Of a DNA stretch of 49,123 nt, positions 26,971-49,092 are shown piece after piece; position 1 is the stretch's first letter, and the number at the start of each line of letters is the position of its first letter. This stretch comes from an uncultured bacterium (GTDB taxonomy: Bacteria > Abyssobacteria > SURF-5). The notes beneath the pieces are model-generated. The model saw only the letters and a list, made by a program, of their open reading frames with translations. It was not told where the DNA came from and did no database searches. A program made the translations under genes and the position numbers. Where the stretch lies: positions 1 through 49,123 of the forward strand of contig CAZSKP010000020.1 of assembly GCA_964607485.1 (NCBI GenBank), written 5' to 3'.

Positions 26971-27043
<73 letters not shown>

Positions 27044-27144
27044 CAACGGGGAAAGGTCAGCATTGACGGGCGATTGCGGCGTCCGTCCCTTTTCCGGTTT
27101 GCTCGGGGAAGTAGGGCAGTGTGCTTGCTTCCCCGCTGATTTTG

Positions 27145-27405
27145 TTAAAATACGCCGCCGCCGTTCGTTGTCGCTGCCAAACCCTCTTGTCGAAGCCGGT
27201 CAGCGTCTTTCTCGCCTTCGATAAGCTCCGGCAAACGATACAGCACTTTCCTGACACCTTTCATATTCCGTATCCAGCCGCCGTTACCGTCCGTCCGGCG
27301 CTGCAAAAAGTATTCTTACCGCGAAGACCCGGGAGGATTATCAAACCTCAGCGCCTGATACAACAACGTCCTTTGAGCATCTTGATAATCATATGCTGGC
27401 CCCAT
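27145..27405 (-). pseudogene. Phage/plasmid-type TOPRIM primase fragment
   Basis: Manual translation: MGPAYDYQDAQRTLLYQALRFDNPPGSSR*EYFLQRRTDGNGGWIRNMKGVRKVLYRLPELIEGEKDADRLRQEGLAATTNGGGVF*; internal stop at 27316-27318. Confidence 0.8.
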
Positions 27406-27560
27406 TTTCGCCTTGCTCCTCCGTTCCGGTCTTTATACGTCCATCTCCCAAGAAAGAATCCCTGCCGGCAAGTGACGCGCTAGGAATAATAGGGGAGGCA
27501 TGTCCACACACACCGCCCGGAGGGGAACTAAAACAAGCTGAAATGTCCTAGCGCGTTTCG

Positions 27561-27589
27561 TTGACATATTACAATTTCCGTGGTAAGAT
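27561..27589 (+). promoter_or_regulatory. Sigma-70 promoter of the island sulfatase-like gene
   Basis: TTGACA-17 nt-TAAGAT with extended -10 TG. Confidence 0.65.
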
Positions 27590-27644
27590 TTTTCTAACCC
27601 CGGCGTCCGCCAAGAGCGGGAAAATCGAAACAGGGGAATGTACA

Positions 27645-28757
27645 ATGAAACGGATTGTTGCGGTTGTTCTCATGGTGGTATTTGCCGCCGCGGGAGCATG
27701 GGCATTCCGGCCTGCTCCAAAGCACCCCAATATCATTCTCATTTCGGTTGATACCTTACGCGCAGATTATTTCGCGCCTGAATACATGCCCCTGACGTAC
27801 CAGTGGGCGCAAGAGCATGGCACAATTTTCACGAATGCTTACGCAAATTCTACTTGTACGTTTCCCTCTCACGTTTCGATGCTGACCGGAAAACTTGCCT
27901 CTGAACAGGGTATAACCAAACTTCAACCGTTGCCGGATAGCTTGAATTTTATTAGTGAGGCTTTGAAGAATAAAGGCTATCATACATATTTCTTTGGAGC
28001 AGACGGATGGATATGCCCCGCTTTCAACTTCGCGCAAGGGTTTGACTATCGCAGGTTCTTTGATTGGGAAACATCTTATGATGATAGAGCCGTACAACTG
28101 CAATGGGCGACTGAAACCAGAATGAAGAAACCCTTTTTTGCGTTTATCCATACAGTGATGATACATCAGTACTGGCTTAGAAATTATTCCGATTGGAAGC
28201 CAGAGTATTCTGGTAGAAAGAATGTTTTGAATCTTCCTGACGAAATGTTTCAATATTATTTCAAATGGCGAAGCACAGCTTCTATTAATGAGCGACGCAT
28301 ATCTTACGCACAGACTGTGCATGATTTTGACATATTGCTTGCCAAATTTCTTGATGCGATGAATCGAGAAGATACTTTTATCATCGTTACCTCTGACCAC
28401 GGTGAGGGCTTGGGCGAGAAGCATGGTGATACAATATTTCTCGATCATGGACTTGCGCCATATCCTAATCAAACCCATGTACCTTTACTCGTTGTCGGAA
28501 ACGCAGAATCTGTATCCGCCCCTGTTGGCCTTGACCAACTTTTTGATACAATCATACGCGTTGCTGACGGAGACAGCTTCTCTATCATGCCGAGAACTGT
28601 TGTATCCGAAGCGGACGAATTCAGGGCGGAAATAACTAAGGACCATTACACAGTGAGCAAAGACAAGAGTGACCATGTGGCGACCGTAGAAGTATCTACA
28701 GAGAAAATACCGGAATCCACAAGGAATGCCTTGAAAGCATTGGGTTATCTTCAATAA
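27645..28757 (+). CDS. Exported sulfatase-like hydrolase/transferase
   Basis: Signal peptide MKRIVAVVL..; PNIILISVDTLRAD, TCTFPSHVSMLTG, IIVTSDHGEGLGE, LKALGYL. Confidence 0.9.
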   Translation: MKRIVAVVLMVVFAAAGAWAFRPAPKHPNIILISVDTLRADYFAPEYMPLTYQWAQEHGTIFTNAYANSTCTFPSHVSMLTGKLASEQGITKLQPLPDSLNFISEALKNKGYHTYFFGADGWICPAFNFAQGFDYRRFFDWETSYDDRAVQLQWATETRMKKPFFAFIHTVMIHQYWLRNYSDWKPEYSGRKNVLNLPDEMFQYYFKWRSTASINERRISYAQTVHDFDILLAKFLDAMNREDTFIIVTSDHGEGLGEKHGDTIFLDHGLAPYPNQTHVPLLVVGNAESVSAPVGLDQLFDTIIRVADGDSFSIMPRTVVSEADEFRAEITKDHYTVSKDKSDHVATVEVSTEKIPESTRNALKALGYLQ

Positions 28758-29215
28758 CCTCTCCATCTTACCGTTCCGTCAGAGCGAGTCTGCCAGAAAT
28801 TTCCAAACGTTGCTTCGCCGCGTGGAGTGTATGTAATATCGAATTCAGCGGCATCCGCAGGGTCTAGGTCGTGTGTTCTGGCGCGTCTCAGTTCGCTTGT
28901 ACCAGCATCGCCGTCTTCAATTCGGAAACCAATATATTTGTCATCAGCGCTGAACTGTTCGCATAGTTTGTTGCGTTAGAATCATTTGTGTTTTTCCAAG
29001 CGGAAGAAGCGCTTTGAGCCAAGGCGCGAATATAAGCACTAAAACCGCCAACGCTTCCCGTATTCGCTTTTCAACTTATATTTAAACTGCTGATTTTCGA
29101 GCATCTGGAAATTGTAAATGGCCAGCGAAAAAATGAATGATTCTTGTTTACGCCGCCTAAATTAAAGGTTCCGATTGCAGTAGCGCCGTCTGTGTGCCAA
29201 TTGAAATCTATAGAT
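28751..29215 (-). pseudogene. Degraded gene remnant, possibly a phage structural or DNRLRE-like beta-sandwich protein
   Basis: Protein-like segments HSFFRWPFTISRCSKISSLNIS*KANTGS.. and, after a frameshift, DKYIGFRIEDGD..AAEFDITYTPRG..RWRGY*. Confidence 0.45.
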
Positions 29216-29216
29216 T

Positions 29217-29410
29217 CCCCCCGCCCGGTCAATGGGAAAAAGGCAATCCCGCCCCCCGTACATGCCACTTCGACTTGGCCCGCATTGGGAGTCACTGGGA
29301 GGTTCCCCAGCTAGGGGATATCGTAACTCGACTGCGATTTGAAATCTGATAATCTGACGGAACGGAAGAGGCACCATGCGGGAAGTGCAGGTCCAGGGGG
29401 TATAGGGGGT
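29217..29410 (-). repeat. Copy 1 of a diverged ~200-bp module (other copy at 42161-42367)
   Basis: Colinear similarity including an exact 22-mer (29335-29356, reverse complement) and CCCCTATACCCCC. Confidence 0.85.
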
Positions 29411-29632
29411 CAGTTTTCGGGAGCACTCCCTTTCCGACGCCCTTGACAAGTGGGGGAGCTTTGTGGTTTCATCATGGGAGCGGAGCGGTCGGATGTATGG
29501 CGTGTGTGTTTGAAAATGGCCGTGGCAGGAAATCACCGTAAAGCACCTTATGTCACCTGATGAAAAGTATCGGCTGAGGAACCCGAATTTACAAGTTCCT
29601 GAGCCGGTAAATCATAGCCTTAATCGACTTGT

Positions 29633-29682
29633 GAGGACTGAAAATCCTTGTGTCGGCAGTTCGATTCTGCCTCCCGCCACAA
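29633..29682 (+). repeat. attR-like duplication of the 3' part of tRNA-Phe
   Basis: gaggactgaaaatccttgtgtcggcagttcgattctgcctcccgccacaa, identical to 26997-27046. Confidence 0.95.
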
Positions 29683-29799
29683 ACATATTCGGATTGTCGG
29701 CCCGAATGAATCGAAGCGGCAAACATTCCCAGGCCACCGGTTCGGACTTTCCGCCAACGTTAATCAGAACCGCAAAGCCAGGCATCGTGCGAGGCTGAA

Positions 29800-31104
29800 A
29801 TGTCGAAGCCAAAGGTCGGAGTGCAGAAGGTGGGCGGAGCCCCTCGTGCCGCCGTCAGCAGGCTTCTGGGGAAGTTTCCCGACATCTGCCGCCGCCTGGA
29901 GGAGTGCGAAAAAGTCTTCATCAAGATAAACGCCGTATATTTCCATCCCCACCTTCATACGTCGCTTTCACTGATAGAAGCGGTCGTGGAATACATAAGG
30001 AACCTCGACTCGAAAAAGCCGATCTATCTGATGGAAAATTGTTCGCAGGGCAACTTCACCCGGCTGTGTTTCACCACCATCGGATTGGATGGCATTGCCA
30101 GGAACCTCAGGCTTTATTGCCTCTATCTCGATGAGGAAAAGTCGGTCAAAGTCGGAATGGGGGAGGGCGAGACGGCGCAAACGGTCCGGTTCCCTCGAAT
30201 CCTTCATGAGAATCTGATCGTCGGCCGGGATAAGAACTTTTATCTTAATATGCCGGTGCTCAAGGCGCACTGCCAGACGCAGTTGACGGCGGGAATCAAG
30301 AATCAGATGGGATTGCTCTACGATTACGATAAGGCCAAGAATCACAACCACAGGCTCCATCAGAAGCTCGTAGATATATTGAAATTCATCAGGCCCGACT
30401 TCACGCTGGTCGATGCGCTGAAGGTGCTCGCGAGAGGCCCCATGCCTCCGGCGAAATATGTCGATGAGCTGCTGCATGAAAAGGATGTCATCCTGGGGGG
30501 CGAAGACACGGTTGCAGTCGACGCCGTGTGCGCGAAAATACTTGGACACGAGCCGGAGGAGGTCAAACACGTGGCGCTGGCGGCGCAACAGGGTCTGGGC
30601 GTGGCCGAGCTTGACGAGATCGAAGTGGATGGGGAGATGCCCGCCTGCAAAGAGAAGATTCCGTGGGAGCTGAATAGACACTTCCCCGAAACCCTGCGCA
30701 TTGTCGTCGGCAAAGGGGGTGCCTGTTACGAAGGCTGTCTTGGCCATGCCGAACAGGTCATCCAATTGGTCGTAAACGAAAACGGCGCTCCCGAAGACTT
30801 TGTTGACATGCCGCTCACGATAGTCACCGGAAAGGGATTCGACGCCGGTCAGCTAGAAGGCCTCGAGGAGCCGATAATGCTTCTGGGCGAATGTGCGTGC
30901 GAGGAGGTGCTCGAAACCCTTCGGGCAAAATATCTAAGCGTGAATGTGCTCAACACTTGCGGCCGATGCGACAACATATTGACCCTCGTCGCCCGCAACC
31001 TCGGCGTGCACGTGTTCGACCTCTCCCCCTTGAGCCGTCTGGAGATATATCGGCAGTTCCTGACTGGCAGGCTGCACGGATTACGCTATAAGATTCCACG
31101 GTAG
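29800..31104 (+). CDS. DUF362 domain Fe-S protein
   Basis: VFIKIN, NMPVLKAH, TAGIKNQMG, RPDFTLVDA, DTVAVDAV; Cys-rich C-terminus GACYEGC. Confidence 0.85.
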   Translation: MSKPKVGVQKVGGAPRAAVSRLLGKFPDICRRLEECEKVFIKINAVYFHPHLHTSLSLIEAVVEYIRNLDSKKPIYLMENCSQGNFTRLCFTTIGLDGIARNLRLYCLYLDEEKSVKVGMGEGETAQTVRFPRILHENLIVGRDKNFYLNMPVLKAHCQTQLTAGIKNQMGLLYDYDKAKNHNHRLHQKLVDILKFIRPDFTLVDALKVLARGPMPPAKYVDELLHEKDVILGGEDTVAVDAVCAKILGHEPEEVKHVALAAQQGLGVAELDEIEVDGEMPACKEKIPWELNRHFPETLRIVVGKGGACYEGCLGHAEQVIQLVVNENGAPEDFVDMPLTIVTGKGFDAGQLEGLEEPIMLLGECACEEVLETLRAKYLSVNVLNTCGRCDNILTLVARNLGVHVFDLSPLSRLEIYRQFLTGRLHGLRYKIPR

Positions 31105-31356
31105 GGTTCGGGGTTTTCGGCTGAAATTTTCCTTGACGTGGTGCGTCATCTTACCATATATTGGTATATGCAGGGTTTCGATGTTTTGTCGGAAGTAAGG
31201 AGCGGCCGCATCTTCGAATGTTGCCGATTTTCCCCTCCTTTTCTTTTCGAGAGAAGTAAAAGGGCGAAAAGCGATCAGTGTCGTAATAGATGCTGGATGC
31301 CGCCGTTCGCTTTCAGCTTCGTCAAACAGGGCATGCAAACTTAACGGAGGAGAGAG

Positions 31357-32811
31357 ATGATTGGTATCACGTCTTATGGAGGATACATCCCAAAGCTCAG
31401 GCTGCAGCGCATGGCCATTTTTCAGAGCATGGGATGGTTCGCCCCCGCGATCATGATGGTCGCCCAGGGCGAAAGGTCGATGTGCAACTGGGATGAGGAC
31501 TCCCTGACTATGGCGGTCGCTGCCGCAAAGGACTGTCTGGTGGGAATGGACAAGAGCAAGGTGGACGCATTGTACCTCTGTTCCACGACCCTTCCATTTG
31601 CCGACCGGCAGAATTCGGGAATCGTTTCCACCGCGCTCAACCTGGACGAGAACGTGCTGACTGCCGACTTCACCGCCTCTCTCAAGGCGGGTACCTCGGG
31701 GATGGTGACCGCGCTCGATGCGTTGAAGGGGGGCGAGAAAAAATCGGTACTGGTCGTCGCCTCCGATAAGCGCGAGACAAAGTCGGCCTATTTCCACGAG
31801 ATGTGGTTTGGCGACGGCGCTGCTTCCGTGACGATGGGAACCGACAACGTGATCGCCGAATGCCTGGGCGTTCACTCCATCTCCGTCGATTTCGTGGACC
31901 ACTATCGGGATTCGATGAGGCACTATGACTACAATTGGGAAGAGCGATGGATTCGCGACGAGGGATATTCCAAGATCATACCCGAGGTCGTCACCGGTCT
32001 GATGAAGAAGCTGGGCGTGTCAGCCGATGACATCACCAAGTTCATTTTCCCTTGCTTTTTCACCCGGGAGCATCGAGGCATAGCCAAGAAACTGGGGCTT
32101 GCCGGACAGCTCGTGGACAACATGCATGACGTATGCGGCGAAACGGGCACGGCCCACCCGCTGGTCATGCTCGTCCGGACGCTGGAAGAAGCCTCTCCGG
32201 GCGACAAGATACTCGTGTGCAGCTTCGGACAGGGTTCCGACGCGCTCCTGTTCCAGGTGACCGACAACATCAAGAAGCTGCCCCCGCGCATGGGCATCAA
32301 CGGCTCACTGGCAAACAAGAAGGAAATGGACACGTACCCCAAGTTCCTCAAGTTCAGAAACCTCATGCAAACGGAGATGGGCATCCGCGCCGAGGCCGAT
32401 TTCCAGACCGCGCTGACGACGCTGTACCGGAAGCGCAAGTTCCTCCTCGGTTTTATCGGCGGTGAGTGTCAGAAGTGCGGCACGCGGCAGATTCCCAGCA
32501 TGGACATCTGCGTGAACCCCGATTGCGGCTCTGTCAAGTCCCAGGTGCCCGCCGAATTCGCCGACACACCCGCGGTTATCAAGACGTTCACGGGCGATAT
32601 GCTGTCCGTGTCAGTCGATCCGCCCAACATTTACGGACTCATACAGTTCGACGGCGGAGGGAGGATTCTCGCGGACTTCTCCGACTGTACGCTTGAGGAC
32701 GTGGCCGTGGGCAAGCGGGTGAAGATGGCGTTTCGCAAAAGAAACTACGACGAAAAACGTGGCTTCCATGCGTATTTCTGGAAGGCGATTCCCGTCGCGG
32801 AAGAAGCATAG
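31357..32811 (+). CDS. HMG-CoA-synthase-like domain fused to a DUF35 (Zn-ribbon plus OB-fold) domain
   Basis: MIGITSYGGYIP, DEDSLTMAV, GDGAA, GETGTAH; C-terminal CQKCG..CVNPDCG and YFWKA. Confidence 0.9.
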   Translation: MIGITSYGGYIPKLRLQRMAIFQSMGWFAPAIMMVAQGERSMCNWDEDSLTMAVAAAKDCLVGMDKSKVDALYLCSTTLPFADRQNSGIVSTALNLDENVLTADFTASLKAGTSGMVTALDALKGGEKKSVLVVASDKRETKSAYFHEMWFGDGAASVTMGTDNVIAECLGVHSISVDFVDHYRDSMRHYDYNWEERWIRDEGYSKIIPEVVTGLMKKLGVSADDITKFIFPCFFTREHRGIAKKLGLAGQLVDNMHDVCGETGTAHPLVMLVRTLEEASPGDKILVCSFGQGSDALLFQVTDNIKKLPPRMGINGSLANKKEMDTYPKFLKFRNLMQTEMGIRAEADFQTALTTLYRKRKFLLGFIGGECQKCGTRQIPSMDICVNPDCGSVKSQVPAEFADTPAVIKTFTGDMLSVSVDPPNIYGLIQFDGGGRILADFSDCTLEDVAVGKRVKMAFRKRNYDEKRGFHAYFWKAIPVAEEA

Positions 32812-32825
32812 AGGAGGATGACGAC

Positions 32826-34031
32826 ATGGCAACCGGAATCAAAGATAAAGTCGCAATCATCGGAATGGGCTGCACGCGGTTCGGCGAACGCTGGGACGTG
32901 GGAGCCGAGGAGCTGATGGTCGAGGCATTCACCGAATGTATGGAAGATGCCGGCATCGACAAGAAGGACATCCAGGCCGCGTGGCTCGGCACCTGCATCG
33001 ATGAGGTGAACGTGGGCAAGAGCGCGCTTCCCCTGTCCGTTACCCTGCGCCTGGACAAGATCGCGGTGACGCGCGTGGAGAATTTCTGCGCAAGCGGAAC
33101 CGAGTCGCTTCGGGGCGCGGTCTACGCCGTTGCCTCGGGCGCATACGACATCTGTCTGGCGATGGGCGTGGAAAAACTGAAAGATACGGGCTACGGCGGC
33201 CTTCCCGCCTCCGTCGGCGGCGGAACGCTGAACAGCCAGTGGTTCCCCAGGCTGACGGCGCCGGGCTCCTTCGCGCAGCTTGCGAGCGCATATGCCGCGA
33301 AGTATAAGATTCCCGACGACGAGCTGAAGCTGGCCCTCGCGCACGTGTCGGCCAAGAGCCACGCAAACGGCGCGAAGAATCCGAAGGCTCACCTTCGGAA
33401 AGCAGTCACGGTGGAGCAGATCATGGCTTCTCCGATTATCGCGCATCCGCTGGGCCTGTTCGACTGCTGCGGCGTGAGCGACGGCGCGGCGTGCGCCATC
33501 GTGACGACGCCGAAGATAGCCAAAGAGATGGGCAAGAAGGATTTCGTTTCCATCAAGGCGCTGCAGCTCGCCCTGAGCAGCGGCGAGGAACTGGGCTTCA
33601 ACGATTGGGACGGCGACCACTTTGTCACGACGTCGAAGTGCAGCCTGAAGGCGTATGAAGAGGCGGGGATAAAGAACCCGCGCGAAGAGATCTCGATGAT
33701 GGAAGTCCACGACTGTTTCTCCATCACTGAGTTCGTGACGATGGAAGACTTGCACATCTCTCCCCGCGGCGGCGCGCTCAAGGACGTGATGGACGGCTTC
33801 TACAACGCCGACGGCGGACTGCCGTGCCAGATCGACGGCGGGCTGAAATGCTTCGGCCATCCCATCGGCGCGTCGGGCCTGCGCATGGTGTATGAGATGT
33901 ACCTGCAGATTCACGGCAGGGCCGGCGACCGCCAGCTCAAAGACCCGAAGCTCGGCCTTACGCACAACCTCGGCGGCTTCCCGTTCATGAACGTATGCAG
34001 CATCGCCATCGTCGGCAAATACGGCGTCTAA
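32826..34031 (+). CDS. Acetyl-CoA acetyltransferase (SCP-x/archaeal-type thiolase)
   Basis: RVENFCASG, DCCGVSDGAA, EVHDCF, GHPIGASG, HNLGG. Confidence 0.92.
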   Translation: MATGIKDKVAIIGMGCTRFGERWDVGAEELMVEAFTECMEDAGIDKKDIQAAWLGTCIDEVNVGKSALPLSVTLRLDKIAVTRVENFCASGTESLRGAVYAVASGAYDICLAMGVEKLKDTGYGGLPASVGGGTLNSQWFPRLTAPGSFAQLASAYAAKYKIPDDELKLALAHVSAKSHANGAKNPKAHLRKAVTVEQIMASPIIAHPLGLFDCCGVSDGAACAIVTTPKIAKEMGKKDFVSIKALQLALSSGEELGFNDWDGDHFVTTSKCSLKAYEEAGIKNPREEISMMEVHDCFSITEFVTMEDLHISPRGGALKDVMDGFYNADGGLPCQIDGGLKCFGHPIGASGLRMVYEMYLQIHGRAGDRQLKDPKLGLTHNLGGFPFMNVCSIAIVGKYGV

Positions 34032-34045
34032 TTTCTCCAGAGATC

Positions 34046-34079
34046 AAAGAGGGGCGAATTTTGCATTCGCCCCTTTCTT
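34046..34079 (+). terminator. Intrinsic terminator after the thiolase gene
   Basis: aaagaggggcgaat-tttgc-attcgcccctttctt. Confidence 0.75.
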
Positions 34080-34219
34080 GTATTCGTAGGTGAACGAGAA
34101 TTTTGTCCCGCGCATTTTCCGACCGCCGCAGTATGGGTTGTCGCAAATTCTGCAGGGACGAAGTGGGGTGCGCCCAAGCCGACTTGATCCCAATTACACA
34201 CATACAGTCATGATGGGCT

Positions 34220-35521
34220 ATGAAGATGGATAAGAATAAATCTTTGGGATATTGGTCAGTGGTTTCGATCGGCGTGGGAGGAATGGTTGGGGGCGGAATA
34301 TTTGCGGTCTTGGGACTGGCTGTTCAGCTTGCTCGAGGTGGAACTCCGATTGCCTTTGGCATAGCTGGAATTGTTGCTCTCATTACCTCCTACTCGTATG
34401 CGCGATTGTCGGTCGCCTATCCCAGCCAGGGTGGAACCGTTGAGTTCCTGAACCAAGCTTTTGGACCGGGGATTATTGCAGGAGGACTCAACATCCTCTT
34501 GTTGTTGAGTTATGTAGTTATGCTTTCATTATATGCGTATGCCTTTGGCAGTTATGGCGCCAGTATTCTTCCCGCAGGCGCTCAACACTTTTGGAAACAC
34601 ATATTGATAAGTGGCGTCATCGTCCTTTTTATGTTACTTAACATCAAAGGCTCTAAGGCTGTTGGCGAGGCAGAAGAATGGATCGTAGGACTGAAAATCG
34701 TCATCCTTTTGTTTTTTGTAGCGATAGGCTTGTGGAGCGTAGATTCCCAGAGGGTTGCAGTGGGAACATGGAGCTCCACATTGCAGTTAGTAGCAGGAGG
34801 CATGATTATTTTTCTGGCTTACGAGGGCTTCGAACTCATAGCAAACACGGCTGGAGATGTCAAGAATCCGCTCAAAACTCTGCCCCGTGCTTACTATTCG
34901 GCAATTGGATTTGTCATTGTATTGTATGTGCTTATCTCGCTGGTAACCGTGGGAAACCTATCGATAGGCGATATCATGGCAGCACGGGATTATGCGTTGG
35001 CTGAGAGCGCCAAGCCTTTCCTGGGCAACTTCGGCTTTACCCTTATCGCAATTGCAGCGCTCTTATCCACAGGTTCCGCCATCAATGCAACGCTCTACGG
35101 GGCCGCTCGCATTAGCTATATCATTGCCAAGGAAGGAGAGCTTCCTGAGGAACTCGACAAGAAGATCTGGAACCGTCCTATCGAAGGATTATTTATCACT
35201 TCCATATTGACTTTGATAGTGGCAAATATTTTCGACCTCACGAGCATCTCGATAATGGGAAGCGCCGGCTTTCTGATAATTTTCGCGGCCGTCAATGCGT
35301 CAAACGCCTATCTAAGCGAGAAGACTGGGAGCCGAAGATGGATTTCCGTTCTTGGCGCCATCGTTTGTTGCGGTGCCGTTGTCGCATTAATCTGGCAAAC
35401 GGTGAGAAGCTCGCCTTCAGAAATCTGGATATTGGCGGTCATGATCGGGTTGTCCTTTGTCGGGGAAGCGTCCTATCGCAAAGTGACAGGGAGAGTAATA
35501 AAGAAAAGCATCGAGTCCTGA
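34220..35521 (+). CDS. APC family amino acid permease
   Basis: About 12 TM segments; IGVGGMVGGGIF, FLAYEGFE, SAINATLY. Confidence 0.92.
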   Translation: MKMDKNKSLGYWSVVSIGVGGMVGGGIFAVLGLAVQLARGGTPIAFGIAGIVALITSYSYARLSVAYPSQGGTVEFLNQAFGPGIIAGGLNILLLLSYVVMLSLYAYAFGSYGASILPAGAQHFWKHILISGVIVLFMLLNIKGSKAVGEAEEWIVGLKIVILLFFVAIGLWSVDSQRVAVGTWSSTLQLVAGGMIIFLAYEGFELIANTAGDVKNPLKTLPRAYYSAIGFVIVLYVLISLVTVGNLSIGDIMAARDYALAESAKPFLGNFGFTLIAIAALLSTGSAINATLYGAARISYIIAKEGELPEELDKKIWNRPIEGLFITSILTLIVANIFDLTSISIMGSAGFLIIFAAVNASNAYLSEKTGSRRWISVLGAIVCCGAVVALIWQTVRSSPSEIWILAVMIGLSFVGEASYRKVTGRVIKKSIES

Positions 35522-35631
35522 GAATATTTTCTTGCGCCCCCTTTTTTAGACGTCTCGAAAGTCTTTCGTCTTAGTTTGTGGTTTGTGGCTGGGCTTTGTT
35601 TTTTCGGCGGTCTCTGGTAGAATAATGGGTG

Positions 35632-35961
35632 ATGACGCGCGAATACACTCACATCGAACTGAACGTAGAGGTTGAGGCCATCGGCGGGCATTACGTTCTC
35701 GAAAAGGAAGTCCGCCTGCCCTACCGCGGAGAGGAAGTTCTGTACGTCGTCGGCATGGCGGTCGTGGACAAGTCATGCTGCGCGCCGACCGGCTGCCGCT
35801 ACGCCATCGTGCCCGGCTACGTGCTCGACTGGCACCACCGCACCAACCACGACAATCTTCCCGTGTCCGAGGTGGAGCCAATACGCGACGAGAGTGCGCG
35901 GAAAGAAATAACCAACCTCATCAAGAAGTCCGAGATCGTCCAACAAGTCGAATTCCACTGA
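35632..35961 (+). CDS. Small hypothetical protein with SCCxxxGC motif
   Basis: Codon usage like the host; REYTHIELN..VLYVVG.AVVDKSCCAPTGCRYAIVPGY. Confidence 0.7.
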   Translation: MTREYTHIELNVEVEAIGGHYVLEKEVRLPYRGEEVLYVVGMAVVDKSCCAPTGCRYAIVPGYVLDWHHRTNHDNLPVSEVEPIRDESARKEITNLIKKSEIVQQVEFH

Positions 35962-36028
35962 CGGGAAATCGGCTTACCACATGCGTCCCGGTTCCAGAAT
36001 TTCGTCGGCCCCATCACTACACCCGCTG

Positions 36029-36057
36029 TTGACCCTGCTTGATGATTATGCTAGAAT
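36029..36057 (+). promoter_or_regulatory. Sigma-70 promoter of tRNA-Thr
   Basis: TTGACC-17 nt-TAGAAT. Confidence 0.65.
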
Positions 36058-36072
36058 TAGGTCTGTTGTAAA

Positions 36073-36145
36073 GCTGGAGTAGCTCAGCCGGTAGAGCACC
36101 TCACTCGTAATGAGGGGGTCAGGGGTTCGAGTCCCCTCTCCAGCT
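36073..36145 (+). tRNA. tRNA-Thr(CGT), CCA not encoded
   Basis: GCTGGAG..CCTCA CTCGTAA TGAGG..AGGGG TTCGAGT CCCCT CTCCAGC T. Confidence 0.96.
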
Positions 36146-36152
36146 CCTTGAT

Positions 36153-36186
36153 ATCAGGGCACTCTTGTGAGTGCCCTGATTTTTTT
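36153..36186 (+). terminator. Hairpin plus U-tract after tRNA-Thr
   Basis: atcagggcactc-ttgt-gagtgccctgat followed by a T run. Confidence 0.8.
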
Positions 36187-36368
36187 GTGTGACAGATATA
36201 GGGAGATTGTGCTGGTTTTCAATGGCCGATATGACCGTAATATCCCCCGTTCGGTTCTTTCTGGGAGCTTGGCGCTGAAGGACCGGCTGTGCTGGCCATT
36301 GAGGGATTTCTTGGAAAATTTTTGAAGCAGCTTTAGGGCCTTTTTCCCCAGTTGAAAAAGCTGAGTTT

Positions 36369-36430
36369 GTGATGATAGTCTTGACTTTTCGGTCTTTTGT
36401 TCCGCCTTCAGAATTCGGATGAGAGTCGCA
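36369..36430 (+). repeat. Copy 1 of a diverged ~60-bp module (other copy at 42548-42608)
   Basis: gtgatgatagtcttgacttttcggtcttttgttccgccttcagaattcggatgagagtcgca versus gtgatgagaatcttgactttcgcccttttgttcgggcttgcgaattcggacgaaagttgca. Confidence 0.8.
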
Positions 36431-36764
36431 GCTATGCGGAAGTGCAGAGTGCTCACCTTTCAGACCAAACGTTCACCCATCTCTCGCTGGCAGTCGGAAA
36501 AGCCGCGCTTGGGCAATCAGATGATGATACTCTTGATTCATCCCTTTCTTGCCTCACCTTGTGGAATCGGACAAAAGTTGCGCTCCGTCGAAGGGAAGAA
36601 TACCTAATTCCCTTGCCCAAACCCTCTCCTGCAGAAACGAGCAGCAAACGACGCCCATTTGGCTTCATTAAGGTATAATATCTGGCAGCAAATTATTGAT
36701 ATGTTCTGCTTTCAGAGCGTCAGGGCACTTTCCCGACACCGTCGGTAGGAGGTGAACTTCATCT

Positions 36765-38156
36765 ATGATAACCTCCTTTGTTCTAGCGCATCTTGCTCTC
36801 GTTGTAGGGTTCCTGCTTGCTCTGGTCATGTTTCCTCACATGCTCGCACAACGTCGTTCGCCGTCAAGCACGATTGCGTGGCTGTTGGCAATTGCGTTTC
36901 TGCCTTACGTCGGAGTTCCGCTGTATCTGCTGATCGGCGGCCGGAAGATACGGAAAGCATCCCGGGACAAGCCCCCCATCCGCATGACCGACACAGAAGA
37001 GCATACGCCTTTGATCTCTCCGCCGATCAGTCGTCTCCTGAAGAGCTACGGTATTGCCGGCGCGACCGCGCAAAACCGGGTGACCCTGTGCGAGACAGGT
37101 GAGTCGGCTTATGCGACTCTCATCGATTTGATTGAGGGGGCGTCCCGGTCTCTCTACATCACTACGTTCGTCATGCAGGAAGATGACGTCGGGAGAGAGG
37201 TTGTAGATCGATTGGCTCGCCGAGCCGGAGAGGGAGTCCGAGTGCGAGTTCTTCTGGATGGGATCGGATCACTGCACACCAGCAATCGGTTCTTATCGCC
37301 GATTACTGAAGCCGGTGGCAAGACGGCTTTCTTTATCCCTGTGATTCATCAACCCTTTCGTGGACGCACGAACCTCCGCAATCACCGCAAGCTTGTCATC
37401 GCAGATGAAAGACGCGTGATGGCTGGCGGAATGAATATCGGCTGTGAATACATGGGGCCTGCGCCCTCCTCGGCTCGATGGCGCGACCTTGCGTTCACCC
37501 TCGAAGGCCCGGCCTCCCGCCAGTACCTCGCGGTGTGGTGTTCGGACTGGAAGTTTGTAACCGGCGAAGACCTTGGCATGTCAAAGGTCGGCAAACAGGC
37601 AGGCATCGCAAAGGAAGACGGGGCCCTCGCTCAGGTGGTGCCATCGGGACCCGACGTTGCCGCCGACCCCTTGTACGAAGCGATCCTCTCGGCTGTGTAT
37701 GCGGCAGAGAGTCGGATATGGGTGGTGACACCGTACTTTGTTCCGGATGAATCACTGGCACATGCCCTGGAGTTGGCGGTCCACCGCGGAGTTCTGGTTC
37801 ATATTCTCGTACCGGAAAAATCCAACCACCCGCTGGTCGACCTGGCGGGCAGAACATATCTCCGGGAGTTACAGAAGGCAGGCTGCGAAGTTCTTCTCTA
37901 TACCGGCGGCATGATGCACGCCAAGGCGATGACGATAGACGGCACGATTGCGGTGATCGGGTCGGCAAATTTCGACAGGAGAAGCCTCTTTCTGGACTAC
38001 GAGATAGCCTTGTTCCTATACAGCAGGAAGGAAGTCGACGCGGTCGGAACTTGGATTGAGAGCCTTACCGGACGTTCGCGCATTGGCGTCAAGGATCCTG
38101 GCAAGATCAGCAATTTCTGTGAGGAAGTTGTGAAGATGATAACGCCTCTCTTATAG
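36765..38156 (+). CDS. cls: Cardiolipin synthase (phospholipase D family)
   Basis: Two N-terminal TM segments (PLD N-terminal AWLL..LPYVG); HKD motifs NHRKLVIAD and MHAKAMTID; GSANFDRRS. Confidence 0.92.
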   Translation: MITSFVLAHLALVVGFLLALVMFPHMLAQRRSPSSTIAWLLAIAFLPYVGVPLYLLIGGRKIRKASRDKPPIRMTDTEEHTPLISPPISRLLKSYGIAGATAQNRVTLCETGESAYATLIDLIEGASRSLYITTFVMQEDDVGREVVDRLARRAGEGVRVRVLLDGIGSLHTSNRFLSPITEAGGKTAFFIPVIHQPFRGRTNLRNHRKLVIADERRVMAGGMNIGCEYMGPAPSSARWRDLAFTLEGPASRQYLAVWCSDWKFVTGEDLGMSKVGKQAGIAKEDGALAQVVPSGPDVAADPLYEAILSAVYAAESRIWVVTPYFVPDESLAHALELAVHRGVLVHILVPEKSNHPLVDLAGRTYLRELQKAGCEVLLYTGGMMHAKAMTIDGTIAVIGSANFDRRSLFLDYEIALFLYSRKEVDAVGTWIESLTGRSRIGVKDPGKISNFCEEVVKMITPLL

Positions 38157-38327
38157 AGGCAAATCGCTTCAGTCGAAGGTTCCGTGTGCCCGGCTGTGCG
38201 TATGCAATTGCAGGACGAGGCAGTCGAGCGGGAAATCACGCCCGCTTCTATTTCATGCTGCCATTGAGTAGTCAGACCCGTGGCGGGTCCCTCGAATCGT
38301 TACACATGCAAGCCATCTCATCAAGAT

Positions 38328-38356
38328 TTGCCGATTTCTATCGATCTGGATATACT
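38328..38356 (+). promoter_or_regulatory. Putative sigma-70 promoter of ftsH
   Basis: TTGCCG-17 nt-TATACT. Confidence 0.5.
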
Positions 38357-38538
38357 TTACCGGTAGGACTTGAAACTGTCGTCGGGGTGAGTTCTGCCAT
38401 TGCCGAAGACGGGAGAATTTTCTTACGCTCCACCATCGCCCTGGTCGCGAGGATACGTTGCGAGAAGCAGGGAATCCGTCGAAAACACCGGCGTTTGGGT
38501 CTGACGTAGTGGCATAGCGGGTGTGCATCTTGAAAGAC

Positions 38539-40554
38539 ATGGAAAAGAAGAAGCAAGTCGACCTATCCGGAACCGACCCGAAGAAGACAGGGCCAAGCTG
38601 GTTGAACTATCCGTGGCATTCATGGATCTGGTACGTAGTATTGGCAATGGCGATATTGTGGCTGTGGCAGGAAACCTTCCGTCAAGTCGCCGTTCACAAT
38701 ATCGCGTACAGTGAGTTCAAGCAACATCTCGCGAAGGGCGAGGTCGTCGAATGCTCCATTCGCGAGAACGATATCGTCGGCAAGATTGAGCCAAAGGGCA
38801 CAGCCAAACCCGAGGCAGTCCAACCCGCCGTGGGGAAAGAGAAGGCGTCCGCCAAACCTGCAGCTACGCCGGTGTCCACCGAATCCCCAAAAGGCTCCTC
38901 CAAAGCCGGTTCAAAACCGGAAAAGTCAAAGGCTGCCCCGCCTCAGGCGTACGTCTTCCGAACGGAGCGCGTCGAGGATCCGGATTTGGTGCGGGAGCTT
39001 CAAGCAAAGCACGTGAAATTCAGCGGAGCGCATCCGAGCTTCCTGTCGCAATTTTTGTTGACATGGATACTTCCGATCGGTTTGATTCTCTTGCTGTGGC
39101 GGTTCTTGGCGGGCCGTATGCAGGGACTGGGAACATCGATGATGAGTTTCGGTTCGAGCCGAGCAAAGCTGGTCGCCGATGCGGAAACCAACGTCACCTT
39201 TGACGATGTCGCAGGCTGCGAAGAGGTCAAAGAGGAATTGCAGGAAGTCGTCACGTTCCTCAAGGATCCCGACCGTTATCGCCTCCTGGGCGCACAGATT
39301 CCCAAGGGCGTTCTGCTTGTCGGTCCGCCTGGAACCGGCAAGACTCTGCTGGCGCGGGCCGTAGCGGGTGAGGCGCACGTGCCGTTCTACTCGATCAGTG
39401 GAAGCGAATTCGTCGAGATGTTCGTTGGCGTCGGCGCGGCGCGAGTGCGCGATTTATTTCTCCAGGCAAAGACGCATGCGCCCTGCATCGTATTTATTGA
39501 TGAGCTCGACGCCGTTGGCCGCCAACGCGGCGTGCGGGCCGGTGTTGTGAACGACGAGCGTGAGCAGACACTCAACCAGTTGCTGGTCGGCATGGATGGG
39601 TTCGAGGCCAATGTCGGTGTCGTTGTGCTCGCCGCCACCAATCGCCCCGAAGTGCTCGACCGCGCACTGCTTCGCCCCGGCCGATTCGACCGGCAGGTAG
39701 TGGTGGATGCGCCCGATCTCAATGGTCGCGAGGCGATTCTCAAGCTTCACGCGCGCGGCAAGCCTCTGGCCGGAGACGGCGATCTTCGGAGGATTGCACA
39801 GGAAACGCCGGGTTTTTCCGGGGCCGATCTCGCGAACGTGGTCAATGAAGCCGCCCTGCTGGCCGCCCGACGCAACGCGAAGGAGATTACGCAGTCTGAC
39901 CTGCAGGAGGCCGTCGAGAAAGTCGTTGCAGGACCTGAGCGCAAGAGCCGGCGCCTCAGCGAGGAAGACAAGCGCCGCGTCGCGTATCACGAAAGCGGTC
40001 ACGCGCTGGTCGCAGCTTACAGTAAACACGCCGACATGTTGCAGAAGATCAGCATTGTCCCGCGTGGTCGTGCGGCGCTCGGCTACACGCTGCAGTTACC
40101 CCAGGACGATCAGTATCTCCGGAGTCGCTCAGAACTGATCGACAAGGTCAACGGTCTGCTCGGTGGAAGAGCGGCGGAGGAGGTCGTGTTCAACGAGATC
40201 AGCACCGGCGCGGAGAACGATCTGGAACAGGCCACGATCATCGCACGACAGATGGTCACGATCTTTGGCATGAGCGATTCGGCGGGATTGGCGCATTGGG
40301 GAAGTCAGCCCAATCAGCTTGTCCCCTGGATGGGTGACGGCAGTCTGTCGAGAGATTGCAGCGAAGCCACTGCACGCATGATCGACGAAGAAGTGCGTAA
40401 GATATTGGATGATGCGCACGGGGAGGCAAAGCGAATTCTGCAGGAGCATCGCGACCAACTGGACCTCGTGGCCAAGGAGCTCCTGCAACGCGAAACCATG
40501 GATGCGCAGACGTTCAAGGAATTGATAGAACAGAAGCAAGAAGCAGCCCAGTGA
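38539..40554 (+). CDS. ftsH: ATP-dependent zinc metalloprotease FtsH
   Basis: Two TM segments; [39 protein letters not shown]; start set at the ATG of MEKKKQ. Confidence 0.97.
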
Positions 40555-41049
40555 AAGGGGACCGTGACCGACTCCCATGAAACCGCTCTATTCGGAACGG
40601 GAGAGATTTCGGATAGAATGCTCGTTGCCGGGAGGGACCGCGAACTGATATATATCTCATACCAGGTAAAGTCCGCACCTATTTTGCTGCATCAATAAAC
40701 AAAGATTCTACCAAGAATCTTCAGGTACTCTTCCCTACGGAAAGGTCTAGGTAACGTTTTCTAGGATGCACCCTCCGAAGGCCTCCATAAAATCTTCTCT
40801 TCTCTGACAAATCAAGAAAATCCCCCTTCAACTCTGCCCTCCATTGAATGTTGTTCCGACATATTATTGCCTTCTTGTAAGAACTGCGAAATATCTACCT
40901 TTCTTCTCAGTACCGTGTGAAACGCTTGGATTGACAACGACGACTGGCCCCAAGATATAATTGACCAGCGCCGGTTCTCACGATTTTCTTGAGAAGGGAC
41001 AAGCATTTGTGCGTACGTATAGAAGGAGAAAAGTCAGGAGGGTGAGAGA

Positions 41050-41937
41050 ATGCATTACGAAACGATCTTGTATAGAACGAGCGGAAAAATTGCCACGGTC
41101 ACCCTGAATCGACCAGAAAAGTTCAATACCATCCGGCCGCCAATGCCGGAAGAGCTTGAGAAGGCCATCGCCGAGGCGAACGCCGATGAAAATGTTCGTG
41201 TAATTATTTTGGAGGGTGCGGGCAAATCTTTCTGCGCAGGCTTTGATTTCTCGGGGAATTTAGAACACTTCTCCGGCTGGGGCATGAAAAGCGGAGCCGA
41301 AGCGTGGGATCCGGGACGCGACATGATGACCGTCACTAGTCCGTTCATTGGGCCCATCCCAAAGTTTATGAGCATTTGGCGCAGCCCAAAGCCCGTCATT
41401 GCTCGCGTGCACGGATGGTGCGTGGGCGGTGGCACCGACATGGCGCTTCTTGCGGACGTCATCATATCTACCGAAGATGCCCGATTTGGAACTCCATATT
41501 CGCGCGTGTGGGGGTGCTACCTGAGCGGCTTGTGGATATACCGCTTGGGCTTAACGAAGGTAAAGCTGCTGGCGCTCACGGGCGATTCCATCAGCGGAAA
41601 AGAAGCTGAGGAAATCGGCTTGATCAATAAGGCCTATCCCGCGGAACAGCTCGACGAGATGGTAGGGTACTGGGCGAACCGAATGGCACAATGCCCCACC
41701 GCGCAACTAGCCGCAATGAAACTCGTCATCAATCAAGCTTATGACAACATGGGGCTTCACGGCACGCAACTCCTGGGCTGTATCCTGGATGGATATATGC
41801 GCAACATACCGGAAGGATTGGAGTTCGTCCGTGTTGCCATGGAAAAGGGTGTGGGGGAAGCGGTTGTACGGCGCGACGGGCCTTTCGGCGATTATAGCCA
41901 GGGACCGCCGGAACTCAAGCCTTCGAGAACTCCTTGA
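41050..41937 (+). CDS. Crotonase/enoyl-CoA hydratase superfamily protein
   Basis: TLNRPEKFN, GKSFCAGFD, KPVIARVHGWCVGGG, ALTGDSISGKEAEEIGLIN. Confidence 0.92.
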   Translation: MHYETILYRTSGKIATVTLNRPEKFNTIRPPMPEELEKAIAEANADENVRVIILEGAGKSFCAGFDFSGNLEHFSGWGMKSGAEAWDPGRDMMTVTSPFIGPIPKFMSIWRSPKPVIARVHGWCVGGGTDMALLADVIISTEDARFGTPYSRVWGCYLSGLWIYRLGLTKVKLLALTGDSISGKEAEEIGLINKAYPAEQLDEMVGYWANRMAQCPTAQLAAMKLVINQAYDNMGLHGTQLLGCILDGYMRNIPEGLEFVRVAMEKGVGEAVVRRDGPFGDYSQGPPELKPSRTP

Positions 41938-42160
41938 ACTACCAGATACCCGAAACGGAAACAGACCGCCGGACTGGCATGACAGGCATAGGGTCATAAC
42001 ATTGACAAAGTCAAACATCGCGTGCAGTCAAAGGTCTCAGTTGTCTGCGTCCTGAATAACTCCAATTGTTTTCTCGAAGTTGCATTTCAATCATTCGGCA
42101 AGAAGAGTCATCAGTTCGTTTTCAAATCTGCACTCAGAGACCTTCCCATGACTTAATCTA

Positions 42161-42367
42161 TCCCCTATACCCCCGCTTGGGCAAACTCTTCGGGTATGGT
42201 ACCTATTTGGTTCCGCCAGATTATCAGATTTCAAATCGAGGTTAGGTTACAATGCCCCACCGGGGGAAACGTCGAAGTGACTTCCGCTCTGCGAGCGACC
42301 GAAAGCGGCATTTCCGGAAGAGCGGACTATCCTTTTTCCTTTTTCACTGAGGGACCGGGGGGACCCC
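42161..42367 (+). repeat. Copy 2 of the ~200-bp module; a partial third copy of its 5' motif lies at 42452-42496
   Basis: cagattatcagatttcaaatcg at 42217-42238; CCCCTATACCCCC at 42162 and 42452, each followed by gtacctatt. Confidence 0.85.
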
Positions 42368-42547
42368 ACAAAAGGGACTCCGGAAGCGTGGAAGGATGTG
42401 GACGCATTTTCGAGGGAGTGGGTTTTCTGAAAAAAGTCTATTTTTTTCAGCCCCCTATACCCCCTTGAGACAGTTCCTCCCCATAGAGTACCTATTGAGG
42501 TCTCGCGGATGAAGGACTTTCGGGTTCTGCTTAGTGGTGCAACTATC

Positions 42548-42608
42548 GTGATGAGAATCTTGACTTTCGCCCTTTTGTTCGGGCTTGCGAATTCGGACGA
42601 AAGTTGCA
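42548..42608 (+). repeat. Copy 2 of the ~60-bp module
   Basis: Aligns almost without gaps to 36369-36430. Confidence 0.8.
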
Positions 42609-42856
42609 CTGAGCCGGGGTGAAGAATATCCGCCTCTCGTGATTGAACCTTCACTACTCTGAATGTGAATCAACAGGAGTACCTGAAGGAAGGCAAGCAG
42701 GTGGGTCGCACATAATGAGAGCAGATAGCCTTTCTCGGGGTGCCTCTGGGTGGCAGATAATGCTCTTCAATTTATCTAAGCTAAACCTGTTATTCATGAA
42801 TCATTTGTTTCCCTTTTGACAAAACCTAAACCGTGTGATTTAATCTCGGCTGCGGG

Positions 42857-43106
42857 ATGTCACCGTTGCACAGCTTCCACACCTTACTGAAAGATCTGAT
42901 GACTATCGTCAAGAACCACCTTGAGCCCAAACACCCCAATCTCTGTGCCTTTGACAAGATGCCCCAGCCAACGCCGCTGCAACAACGAGCTTTGGATTTG
43001 CTCGGTGTTCGATTATATTGTTTCCAGTACGGGAACATGGCCTTTGGCTATAACCGTCCAAATGAAAAGGGCTTACCGCAAAAATGCATCAGGGACTTCG
43101 GGCTAA
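42857..43106 (+). mobile_element. IS1634-family remnant: transposase C-terminus and probable right end
   Basis: PLHSFHTLLKDLMTIVKN...PTPLQQRALDLLGVRL resembles the IS1634 C-terminal signature; ends at gggacttcgggctaa. Confidence 0.72.
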
Positions 43107-43110
43107 AGCG

Positions 43111-43506
43111 CCGACCGACCCGGCCAAAATCAAGGCGTTCGTCGAAGAAATGAGGCGGTTGATGAAAGAATAGCCCAATTTCTTCGAGTTGTATCTTATA
43201 CAGAGGCATCAGGTGGAGGCTGGGCTTTCACCGGAACTCAGAGCCCGGGTCAATGCGAAGCACAGGAAGGTGGAAAGCGTGTTCCGGGACTTCTATCGTC
43301 AAGGGGTGGAAAGGGGGGAGGTCCGCAACATAAGCGTCAAGGACGCCTCAAATCTCTTTTTCGCTCGGATCACGGGCATGATGCTTTTGCACGAATACTA
43401 CGAAGAGGAGTTTGATGTCACGCTTGACGAGCGCCTTGACAAGTCGCTTCAGCCATTTCTCGATTTTATCGAGAAAGTAAATTGTCGGCAAAGAACGTTA
43501 CCGTAG
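43111..43506 (+). pseudogene. 5'-truncated TetR/AcrR-like regulator (ligand-binding half only)
   Basis: PTDPAKIKAFVEEMRRLMKE*PNFFELYL..YRQGVERGEVRN..; no HTH, in-frame TAG, abuts the IS end. Confidence 0.65.
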
Positions 43507-46661: not shown

Positions 46662-47110
46662 TCATATTTGGAATCGAACGAAACCGCAATTGCGGTTTGG
46701 ATGGTACCCTGTTGGAGAAAATGAGCCTAAACAAATGATCCCATCATCTCCCATGGGCCAATACCCGGCGAGCAACATAGGCGAACGGAATAGAGTCCCC
46801 AGAATAACAGTTGAAAACTTGACTTTTCCACCCCCTTCAAGAGTATACCTTTCACCCATTCGGTTGTTCAAATATCGCTCTCGGTGAGTGAAGTTTTCGT
46901 TTTCTATTCCGCACACTTGCCCGAGTCTGCGAAGCCTTTCTTTGAGATTCCAAATCTGCGAAACCCCTGTGATGCGTATTCTTCACTTTCCGACTTTTTC
47001 TGAGTGAAAAATAGTCGGGTGAAAGTTGCGGTCGGCGAGGTGAAGAATAATAGGGTCTCAAGGCAAACCTTCAGTGGGCACTTGCGTTTTTTCTCAAGAC
47101 GACCGTACAT
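46662..47110 (-). pseudogene. Frameshifted gene remnant of unknown family, paralogous to 48772-49092
   Basis: CGIENENFTHRERYLNNRMGERYTLEG versus CRKENVFFTRRERYLNERIGGSYTFEG. Confidence 0.55.
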
Positions 47111-48690: not shown

Positions 48691-48771
48691 GTCGGCCGTT
48701 TCAGCAATAGCCCCCTCGGTTCATGTATAACGGCAGGCAGTACTACTCTACCAGTCTATATGAAAGCTGCA

Positions 48772-49092
48772 CTAATCTGTTCCTTCGAAAGTGTAACTTC
48801 CACCAATCCGCTCGTTCAAATATCTCTCTCGGCGAGTGAAGAATACGTTCTCTTTTCTACACTTATTCATTCGAAGGTGAGCGGACTTTTTGTCGACAGT
48901 CATCGGATAAGAGCAACTCCTGATGCATTTCTTGACTTTTGGAAATTGTGGCAGTGAAGAAGAATTTGGCGGAGACTTCACTCGGCCTGCGTCAAGAATA
49001 CCGTCCCTCCATGGAGAAAACTTCACCCCGCATTTCCGGTATGATTCAATGAAAAAATCGCTGCGTTCTGGTATACTTTCATTCATCAACAT
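48772..49092 (-). pseudogene. Gene remnant paralogous to 46662-47110, may extend beyond the window
   Basis: Shared peptide blocks with synonymous codon differences; flanked by stops. Confidence 0.5.

Follow-up and report, generated by a model that had tools for sequence, protein, structure and literature searches.

A non-coding DNA module of about 200 bp occurs in two diverged copies within a 49,123-nucleotide stretch (the window) from an uncultured sediment bacterium (GenBank assembly GCA_964607485.1), the window being bases 1-49123 of contig C20 (80,183 bases), one of the 93 contigs that make up the 4.70-Mb assembly. The module is real, non-coding, conserved block by block, and situated within segments that are bounded by a tRNA gene and an attachment (att)-like repeat of its 3' part. 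The reading that we favor, tentatively and with rather less than even confidence, is that it represents cis-regulatory DNA carried by the islands, with invariant blocks that serve as binding sites for a dedicated factor. DNA recognition sites offer the best fit because the module combines invariant blocks, a tandem repeat and a dyad, flexible spacers, a separable unit, an occurrence at three sites and a location in acquired DNA. We infer that the blocks act as DNA and not as RNA, and that they regulate transcription and not recombination, transfer or replication. Under this proposal the module would have arrived with, or been duplicated inside, laterally acquired tRNA-flanked segments that carry no integrase, and its short invariant blocks would probably be recognition sites for a sequence-specific DNA-binding factor. 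Two separable units can be distinguished, namely a 13-mer/9-mer pair with a spacing of 21-24 nt, present three times, and a 22-mer that comes after it in the two full copies. The whole could then be a control region of operator or enhancer type, left by the element with which the DNA came in.

The two full copies, each read here on its own strand, are copy A (29217..29410, minus) and copy B (42161..42367, plus). An earlier note, made from the letters of this DNA, had described them as colinear but diverged and had listed their elements; alignment confirms the colinearity, and all of the listed elements are present where they had been placed. Each copy begins with the invariant 13-mer CCCCTATACCCCC (29396..29408, minus, in A; 42162..42174, plus, in B), followed by a 9-mer of the consensus GTRCCTMTT, which takes the form GTGCCTCTT in A (29366..29374, minus) and GTACCTATT in B (42199..42207, plus). 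The spacer between these elements is 21 nt in A and 24 nt in B. Between the 9-mer and the next element both copies have GTTCCG and one variable base. Then comes the invariant 22-mer CAGATTATCAGATTTCAAATCG (29335..29356, minus, in A; 42217..42238, plus, in B), which contains a tandem CAGATT and the dyad GATTT-C-AAATC. Beyond it both copies show GTTAC, AGTGACT, GGCAT and CCTTTTTCC in the same order, and then the G run CGGGGGGA. As the earlier note had also pointed out, the two-part motif of 13-mer and 9-mer recurs alone at 42452..42496 (plus), 290 nt after the motif in B, with an exact 13-mer (42452-42464), a spacer of 23 nt and the 9-mer GTACCTATT. The sequence downstream of this third motif is unlike that of A and B, and a copy of the intergenic repeat family D2 (42521-42679), described below, comes next. 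Because the 13-mer/9-mer pair is present three times, we regard it as an independent unit.

Copy A occupies a 1-kb gap between a sulfatase gene (ending at 28757, plus) and a DUF362 gene (starting at 29800, plus), and copy B lies in the gap between an enoyl-CoA hydratase gene (ending at 41937) and a 98-codon open reading frame (ORF) that is followed by a TetR-like remnant. The copies are 12.8 kb apart on one contig and mutually inverted. The gap with copy A additionally contains a 13-nt perfect inverted repeat, CCGTTCCGTCAGA, with arms at 28771-28783 and 29353-29365 that are 569 nt apart. The second arm is located where the conserved core of copy A starts, the first lies 14 nt past the sulfatase stop codon, and the repeat is without counterpart at copy B.

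Rarity of the module and uneven conservation of its blocks

When copy A was compared with the complete genome by blastn, only copy B was recovered (73.8% identity over 126 nt, E 3.6e-13). Likewise, an nhmmer profile of A and B detects the two copies alone, the next matches having E-values of 1.8 and 2.4, the latter of which is the third motif copy. Besides the three occurrences of the 13-mer described above, the genome has a fourth (C6:55128), which falls within a 674-codon open frame. The two-part motif, with up to two mismatches allowed in the 13-mer and one in the 9-mer, has three sites in the genome and none in the reversed control. In place of the genome-wide scatter expected of an ordinary miniature inverted-repeat transposable element (MITE) or repetitive extragenic palindromic (REP) sequence, these three kinds of search give two to three copies.

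From the 13-mer to the G run the alignment of A and B has 204 columns, of which 133 match and 11 contain gaps (~65% identity). The longest identical runs are 22 and 13 columns. In 20,000 shuffles of the match and mismatch columns, a run of at least 22 had P=0.0024, and its combination with another run of 13 or more had P=0.0001. The description of the module as invariant blocks separated by variable spacers, given in the earlier note, is thus borne out as a measurable property. Blocks that are longer than uniform divergence predicts point to probable constraint on short sites, with short conversion tracts being the less likely cause.

The same pattern has to be weighed against a neutral origin, in which non-coding or formerly coding DNA was duplicated locally and inverted, with the blocks persisting by chance or through short conversion. 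The copies are indeed close to each other, on one contig and in inverted orientation; they are the only two full copies in all the collections searched; no promoter, terminator, structure or ORF feature in them passes a test; and the region 42130-42866, which includes copy B, differs in contigs of a related population. However, the conservation of the blocks exceeds the permutation expectation, and the 13-mer is exact in three copies even though the third has otherwise diverged almost beyond recognition, as its nhmmer E-value attests. Conversion tracts of 13-22 nt flanked by sequence of 50-65% identity would, moreover, be unusually short. We consider a neutral relic fairly unlikely, although it is still a serious competitor of the favored reading, as is the small RNA pair discussed below.

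Searches beyond this genome returned no relatives of the module. The host phylum is represented by 11 species genomes in the collection used, and the two-part motif has no occurrence in the other 10. A sequence-only covariance model run over the phylum gave a best E-value of 0.083, inside a 569-codon ORF, and blastn against 60 other genomes gave a single 46-nt match, within an epimerase ORF. Scans for exact 21-mers and 20-mers found one locus in species-representative genomes, one in viral contigs and eight on metagenome contigs, all of them in unrelated contexts. The genome locus and four of the eight metagenome loci are phosphoenolpyruvate (PEP) synthase genes, two others are one phage-like gene in another frame, and the remainder is AT-rich DNA. 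Most of these matches are explained by the fact that the 20-mer encodes RLSDFK, a PEP synthase motif. The pattern of the two-part motif has no locus in viral contigs, and blastn found nothing in phages and only chance matches of 25-35 nt in plasmids. The module is therefore an orphan confined to this genome among the collections searched, and the undescribed family of tRNA-targeting integrative elements to which the earlier note had assigned it has no second representative in the genomes, viral contigs, metagenomes, phages and plasmids scanned. Because of this confinement to one genome, the module says little about biology in general.

Coding, RNA and promoter tests

Two reading frames were considered as possible traces of a small protein gene or of a remnant of a known gene. 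The first, MVPxxFRQIIRFQI, had been offered in the earlier note as a small-peptide remnant. Both copies have an open frame that starts with ATG, of 90 and 71 codons, and the products are 43% identical over 53 residues. However, the nucleotide alignment of A and B requires one -1 and one +1 indel at a distance of 30 nt, so that over these 30 nt the true alignment is out of frame, and the nucleotide identity drops to 57% when these gaps are left out. The differences between the copies are distributed over the three codon positions as 20/22/26, with no third-position excess, and the pN/pS of 0.64 does not set this frame apart from the others. Pfam gives no match to the frames of the module even at E-values up to 10, and word-index searches of proteins of 49-158 and 75-2000 residues found no homologue. 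An exhaustive HMMER search of 1.84 billion representatives yielded four matches at E<=0.001. The two of these that were inspected (P0003 and P0005) are no real homologues, being internally repetitive tandem-repeat proteins aligned in 11 and 5 short stretches.

The second frame, SPIPPL...RLSDFKS, has similarity to a PEP synthase motif and to the C-terminal end of an epimerase. The RLSDFK-coding 20-mer accounts for the matches to PEP synthase genes noted above, and the 46-nt match (79%) within the epimerase gene of an unrelated genome encodes LxLSPIPPL. Against a coding role of this frame stand a TGA at 42149-42151 and the lack of a start codon. A PEP synthase pseudogene was rejected, as blastx against three such enzymes ends at 7-8 residues (E 1.2-3.2) and no PEP-utilizer Pfam domain matches at E<=10. 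An epimerase relic was likewise rejected, with the BLASTP alignment spanning 9 residues only and the search of 75-2000-residue proteins giving no homologue. The module is non-coding: neither Pfam nor the protein searches make it part of a known protein-coding gene, and the peptide remnant is contradicted by the missing homologues, the even spread over codon positions and the frame-shifting indels. We regard an origin in either of these frames as very improbable.

A further alternative is that A and B are a pair of paralogous small RNAs, in which the 13-mer/9-mer pair would be an unusual promoter, the 22-mer an unpaired seed targeting mRNAs and the rest drifting stems. Paralogous small RNAs that share an identical seed are known, as exemplified by the Qrr RNAs of Vibrio. 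Several features of the module are in line with this. In the minimum-energy folds of A and B alike, most of the 22-mer is left unpaired. A candidate helix in B (42244..42283, plus), with AGGTTAC pairing with GTGACTT around a CCCC/GGGG hairpin, has a counterpart in A (29289-29329, minus), where GAGTTAC pairs with GTGACTC. In the RNAalifold prediction this helix (pairs 44-50 with 78-84) is kept through the alteration of one pair on both sides and of another on one side, and over the whole prediction 6 of the 56 pairs are altered on both sides, counts that come from two sequences only. In a second stem, GGRRGR:CCUUUUUCC, a series of G-U pairs is replaced by A-U, and it pairs on the module strand alone (again in two sequences). 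In both copies T runs (at about 29130 and 42447) lie ~85 nt past the G run, and the start of the third motif is 290 nt after that of the motif in B.

The statistical tests are less favorable to an RNA. Single-sequence folds have z-scores of -0.25 and -0.04. The consensus fold of A and B, compared with column-shuffled alignments, has a z-score of -0.36 on the module strand, where 102 of 300 shuffles were as good, and of +1.15 on the opposite strand. At the Rfam gathering threshold only three tRNAs pass, and in E-value mode nothing overlaps A or B. No intrinsic terminator was found at either copy and no sigma-70 site (TTGACA, N16-18, TATAAT) at the two-part motif, even though the sigma-70 promoters of this host are strongly canonical: a perfect TTGACA-N16-18-TATAAT is present in 8 of 46 tRNA upstream regions, and at least 10 of the 12 positions match in 23 of the 46. 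The variation of the spacer from 21 to 24 nt is also unlike the spacing of -35 and -10 elements, and no homologue was found in the other genomes searched. Taken together, a small RNA pair appears possible but rather unlikely.

Sigma-54 promoters were examined separately, with TGGCAC, 5 nt and TTGC as the canonical site. One rpoN gene is present, the sigma-54 activator domain has 29 strong matches, and exact canonical -24/-12 sites number 20 versus 6 in the reversed control; the organism relies heavily on enhancer-dependent transcription. Just past the G run of A (29181-29200, minus), TTGGCACA agrees exactly with the -24 element of the sigma-54 sites of this genome, with CGGC in place of TTGC. 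We rejected a sigma-54 promoter downstream of the module because this -12 element of copy A is wrong and copy B is weaker; a relaxed pattern gave 124 sites versus 306 in the control.

A number of these observations weigh against the regulatory DNA sites that we favor. The module strand folds better than its reverse, and one helix that keeps pairing through changes and a stem that swaps G-U for A-U likewise fit RNA better than DNA. The two-part motif has no likeness to the promoter types that this organism clearly uses. With two full copies only, selection is inseparable from short-tract gene conversion. No binding factor was identified and no regulator gene adjoins either copy, the TetR-like gene after B being a remnant. 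Downstream of copy A there are 460 nt that hold no supported ORF, and then the 3' end of a convergent gene.

The tRNA-bounded segments and the question of mobility

Both copies lie within a segment that has a tRNA gene at one end and, at the other, a perfect direct repeat of the 3' part of that gene, and in this respect the tRNA-linked islands proposed in the earlier note are real. The segment with copy A spans 2.6 kb, from tRNA-Phe(GAA) (26971..27044, plus) to an att-like distal boundary at 29633..29682 (plus), where the 3' half of tRNA-Phe is repeated perfectly over 50 nt (its partner being 26997-27046) in a copy that itself scores as a partial tRNA with 23.4 bits. Its sole Pfam-supported gene is the sulfatase (27561..28757, plus), with a G+C content of ~0.45 as opposed to 0.57 for the genome. 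The segment with copy B spans 18.5 kb, from tRNA-Thr(CGT) (36073..36147, plus) to a 45-nt perfect distal repeat at C20:54697-54741, outside the window. Here the similarity continues beyond the core, with 36102-36283 and 54697-54876 being identical at 83.5% of 182 nt and the arms beyond the core (36148-36283 versus 54743-54876, ~135 nt) at 78.7%. This similarity of the arms suggests that related elements may have integrated in succession. A comparison of the two segments by tblastx shows the module to be the only sequence that they share.

The segments probably represent acquired DNA because att-like repeats bound both of them, the sulfatase gene is of low G+C content, the beta-keto acid cleavage enzyme (BKACE) gene after copy B has no relative above 37% identity in 12 related genomes, and contigs of a related population diverge around copy B. 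The last point comes from run X3, where two contigs agree with the window as far as 42129 and from 42867 onward, and beyond these points extend for 465 and 1093 letters of unlike sequence. The stretch with copy B is therefore variable between close relatives. In runs X3, X4 and X6 the bins 27101-29504 and 42126-42726 are almost uncovered; no listed contig spans them, so this low coverage is not evidence of absence.

Most of the flanking genes are intact by Pfam, contrary to the decay that had been claimed for them. They encode, besides the sulfatase, the enoyl-CoA hydratase and BKACE, a DUF362 protein, two thiolase-like proteins, an amino-acid permease, a PLD-type cardiolipin synthase, FtsH, a ketopantoate-reductase-like protein and a short-chain dehydrogenase. 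The one gene that looks degraded is the TetR-like gene past copy B (43066-43506): it retains the C-terminal domain alone, has an in-frame TAG at 43171-43173, and no N-terminal helix-turn-helix (HTH) domain was found upstream of it. Beyond the window the tRNA-Thr segment also encodes an extracytoplasmic function (ECF)-type sigma factor (C20:49211-49960), followed by a 1415-residue protein that combines a Ser/Thr kinase with FGE-sulfatase, lectin-like and TPR domains, the two together occupying C20:49211-54258.

The earlier note had proposed a packaging site or an origin of replication or transfer. In the mobility reading considered here, which also takes in a recombination arm, such a cis-acting site of integrative elements would be recognised by proteins that a helper element supplies in trans. 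This has some appeal, in that both copies are in att-bounded segments stripped of integration genes, which matches the definition of cis-mobilizable elements given in PMC6323972. Copy A lies 222 nt inside the distal tRNA-Phe repeat, reading inward, where arm-type sites are expected, and its tandem CAGATT is similar in form to such sites; in addition, the arms at tRNA-Thr are alike at both ends. In contrast, copy B is 6.0 kb from tRNA-Thr and 12.3 kb from the distal repeat, and a degenerate or cryptic att core is absent within 1 kb of it (p 0.74-0.97). Pfam searches of the ORFs over C20 22973-80183 found no recombinase, relaxase, primase or terminase, and none of the eight genomic matches to the integrase family PF00589 is on this contig. 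There are no iterons apart from the two 6-nt repeats, and, as described above, the viral contigs, phages and plasmids searched hold no related sequence.

The remaining islands of the genome are equally relevant to this question. Five further segments are bounded by a tRNA and its repeat, at tRNA-Pro (two), tRNA-Arg, tRNA-Met and tRNA-SeC. They are located at C24:34870-43778, C14:43902-52864, C55:680-16560, C3:151834-163903 and C19:41419-52710, with repeats of 32-47 nt. The tRNA-Arg segment (C24, 8.9 kb) has an intact integrase gene along with a capsid, a tape-measure and an HTH gene, and is like a small prophage or satellite. One tRNA-Pro segment has a 42-residue integrase fragment left, and the others carry metabolic or signalling genes. 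Neither nhmmer nor the motif scan found the module in any of the five, including the one with the intact integrase, so that it is not a feature of the islands at large. Furthermore, since A and B are only 12.8 kb apart, a local duplication could have placed both copies in islands irrespective of any role in mobility. For a role in packaging, replication or transfer nothing was found in support, and we judge a mobility site of any of these kinds unlikely. The earlier interpretation is supported in part: its island context and site-like constraint are upheld, whereas a family, a connection with mobility and a defined function are not.

A broader version of the helper-protein idea, to which we give a low probability, is that the 13-mer/9-mer pair and the 22-mer are recognised by a protein that a helper element provides in trans, which could be a regulator, a mobilisation factor or a recombination directionality factor, and that the module marks an undescribed kind of integrase-less tRNA island. 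If so, the module would be a handle for the control or movement of islands that carry gene cargo. More generally, if the blocks are binding sites, they would be among the few visible functional traces in islands stripped of mobility genes, and could show how cargo islands stay controlled or helper-mobilised in a barely sampled sediment phylum. A by-product of the analysis is a map of the tRNA-repeat segments and of the intergenic repeat families of this genome.

Comparison with known systems

The module shares with MITE and REP repeats that it is a non-coding repeat within intergenic gaps. It differs from them in having two to three copies within 13 kb, and in having neither terminal inverted repeats nor target duplications. 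The genome does possess true multi-copy intergenic families, D1 and D2, and membership of the module in either was rejected, as their profiles give no match to it. D1 has 48 nhmmer matches at E<1e-3, with clusters on C4 (12) and C7 (11). Its sites include 46775-46916 and 48760-48864 in the window, C20:54306-54439 and 68488-68546 farther along the contig, and many on C4, C7 and C31. The D1 core consists of AACTT, 16 nt and TCAAA, followed by a CGCTCT/AGAGTG hairpin, and has no Rfam match. These blocks and their spacing resemble those of an ECF-sigma-type promoter, and one D1 copy is upstream of the ECF sigma gene at C20:49211-49960. D2 has 14 nhmmer matches at E<0.01, and in several cases a D1 copy lies directly upstream. 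Its sites are 42521-42679, 36343-36499, 36522-36626 and 46967-47073 in the window and C4:98955, C31:26864 and others elsewhere. One D2 copy follows the third motif beside copy B, and two tandem copies follow tRNA-Thr.

As described in PMC6323972, cis-mobilizable elements (CIMEs) retain attL and attR and have lost the genes for integration and transfer. The host segments described here are similar to CIMEs in being bounded by a tRNA and a perfect repeat of 45-50 nt and in having no integrase or transfer gene. They differ in that a CIME is defined with respect to a cognate integrative and conjugative element sharing its att site, for which the search here gave no candidate: no integrase-bearing element was seen at tRNA-Phe or tRNA-Thr, and the sole tRNA-adjacent intact integrase is that at tRNA-Arg on C24. 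This comparison covers the host segments and not the ~200-bp module, and we know of no CIME-specific internal module of such a kind.

From Qrr-type small RNAs the module is set apart by having no promoter of a known class, terminator, significant conserved fold or Rfam match; it has in common with them that several diverged copies keep an identical unpaired stretch close to the 5' end and share a motif upstream. Finally, the module differs from the operator and enhancer regions of mobile elements in being without an adjacent regulator gene, a recognisable promoter or a regulated gene downstream of A. It is like them in its invariant blocks, its dyad and tandem repeat, its flexible spacers, its small number of sites and its location in acquired DNA.

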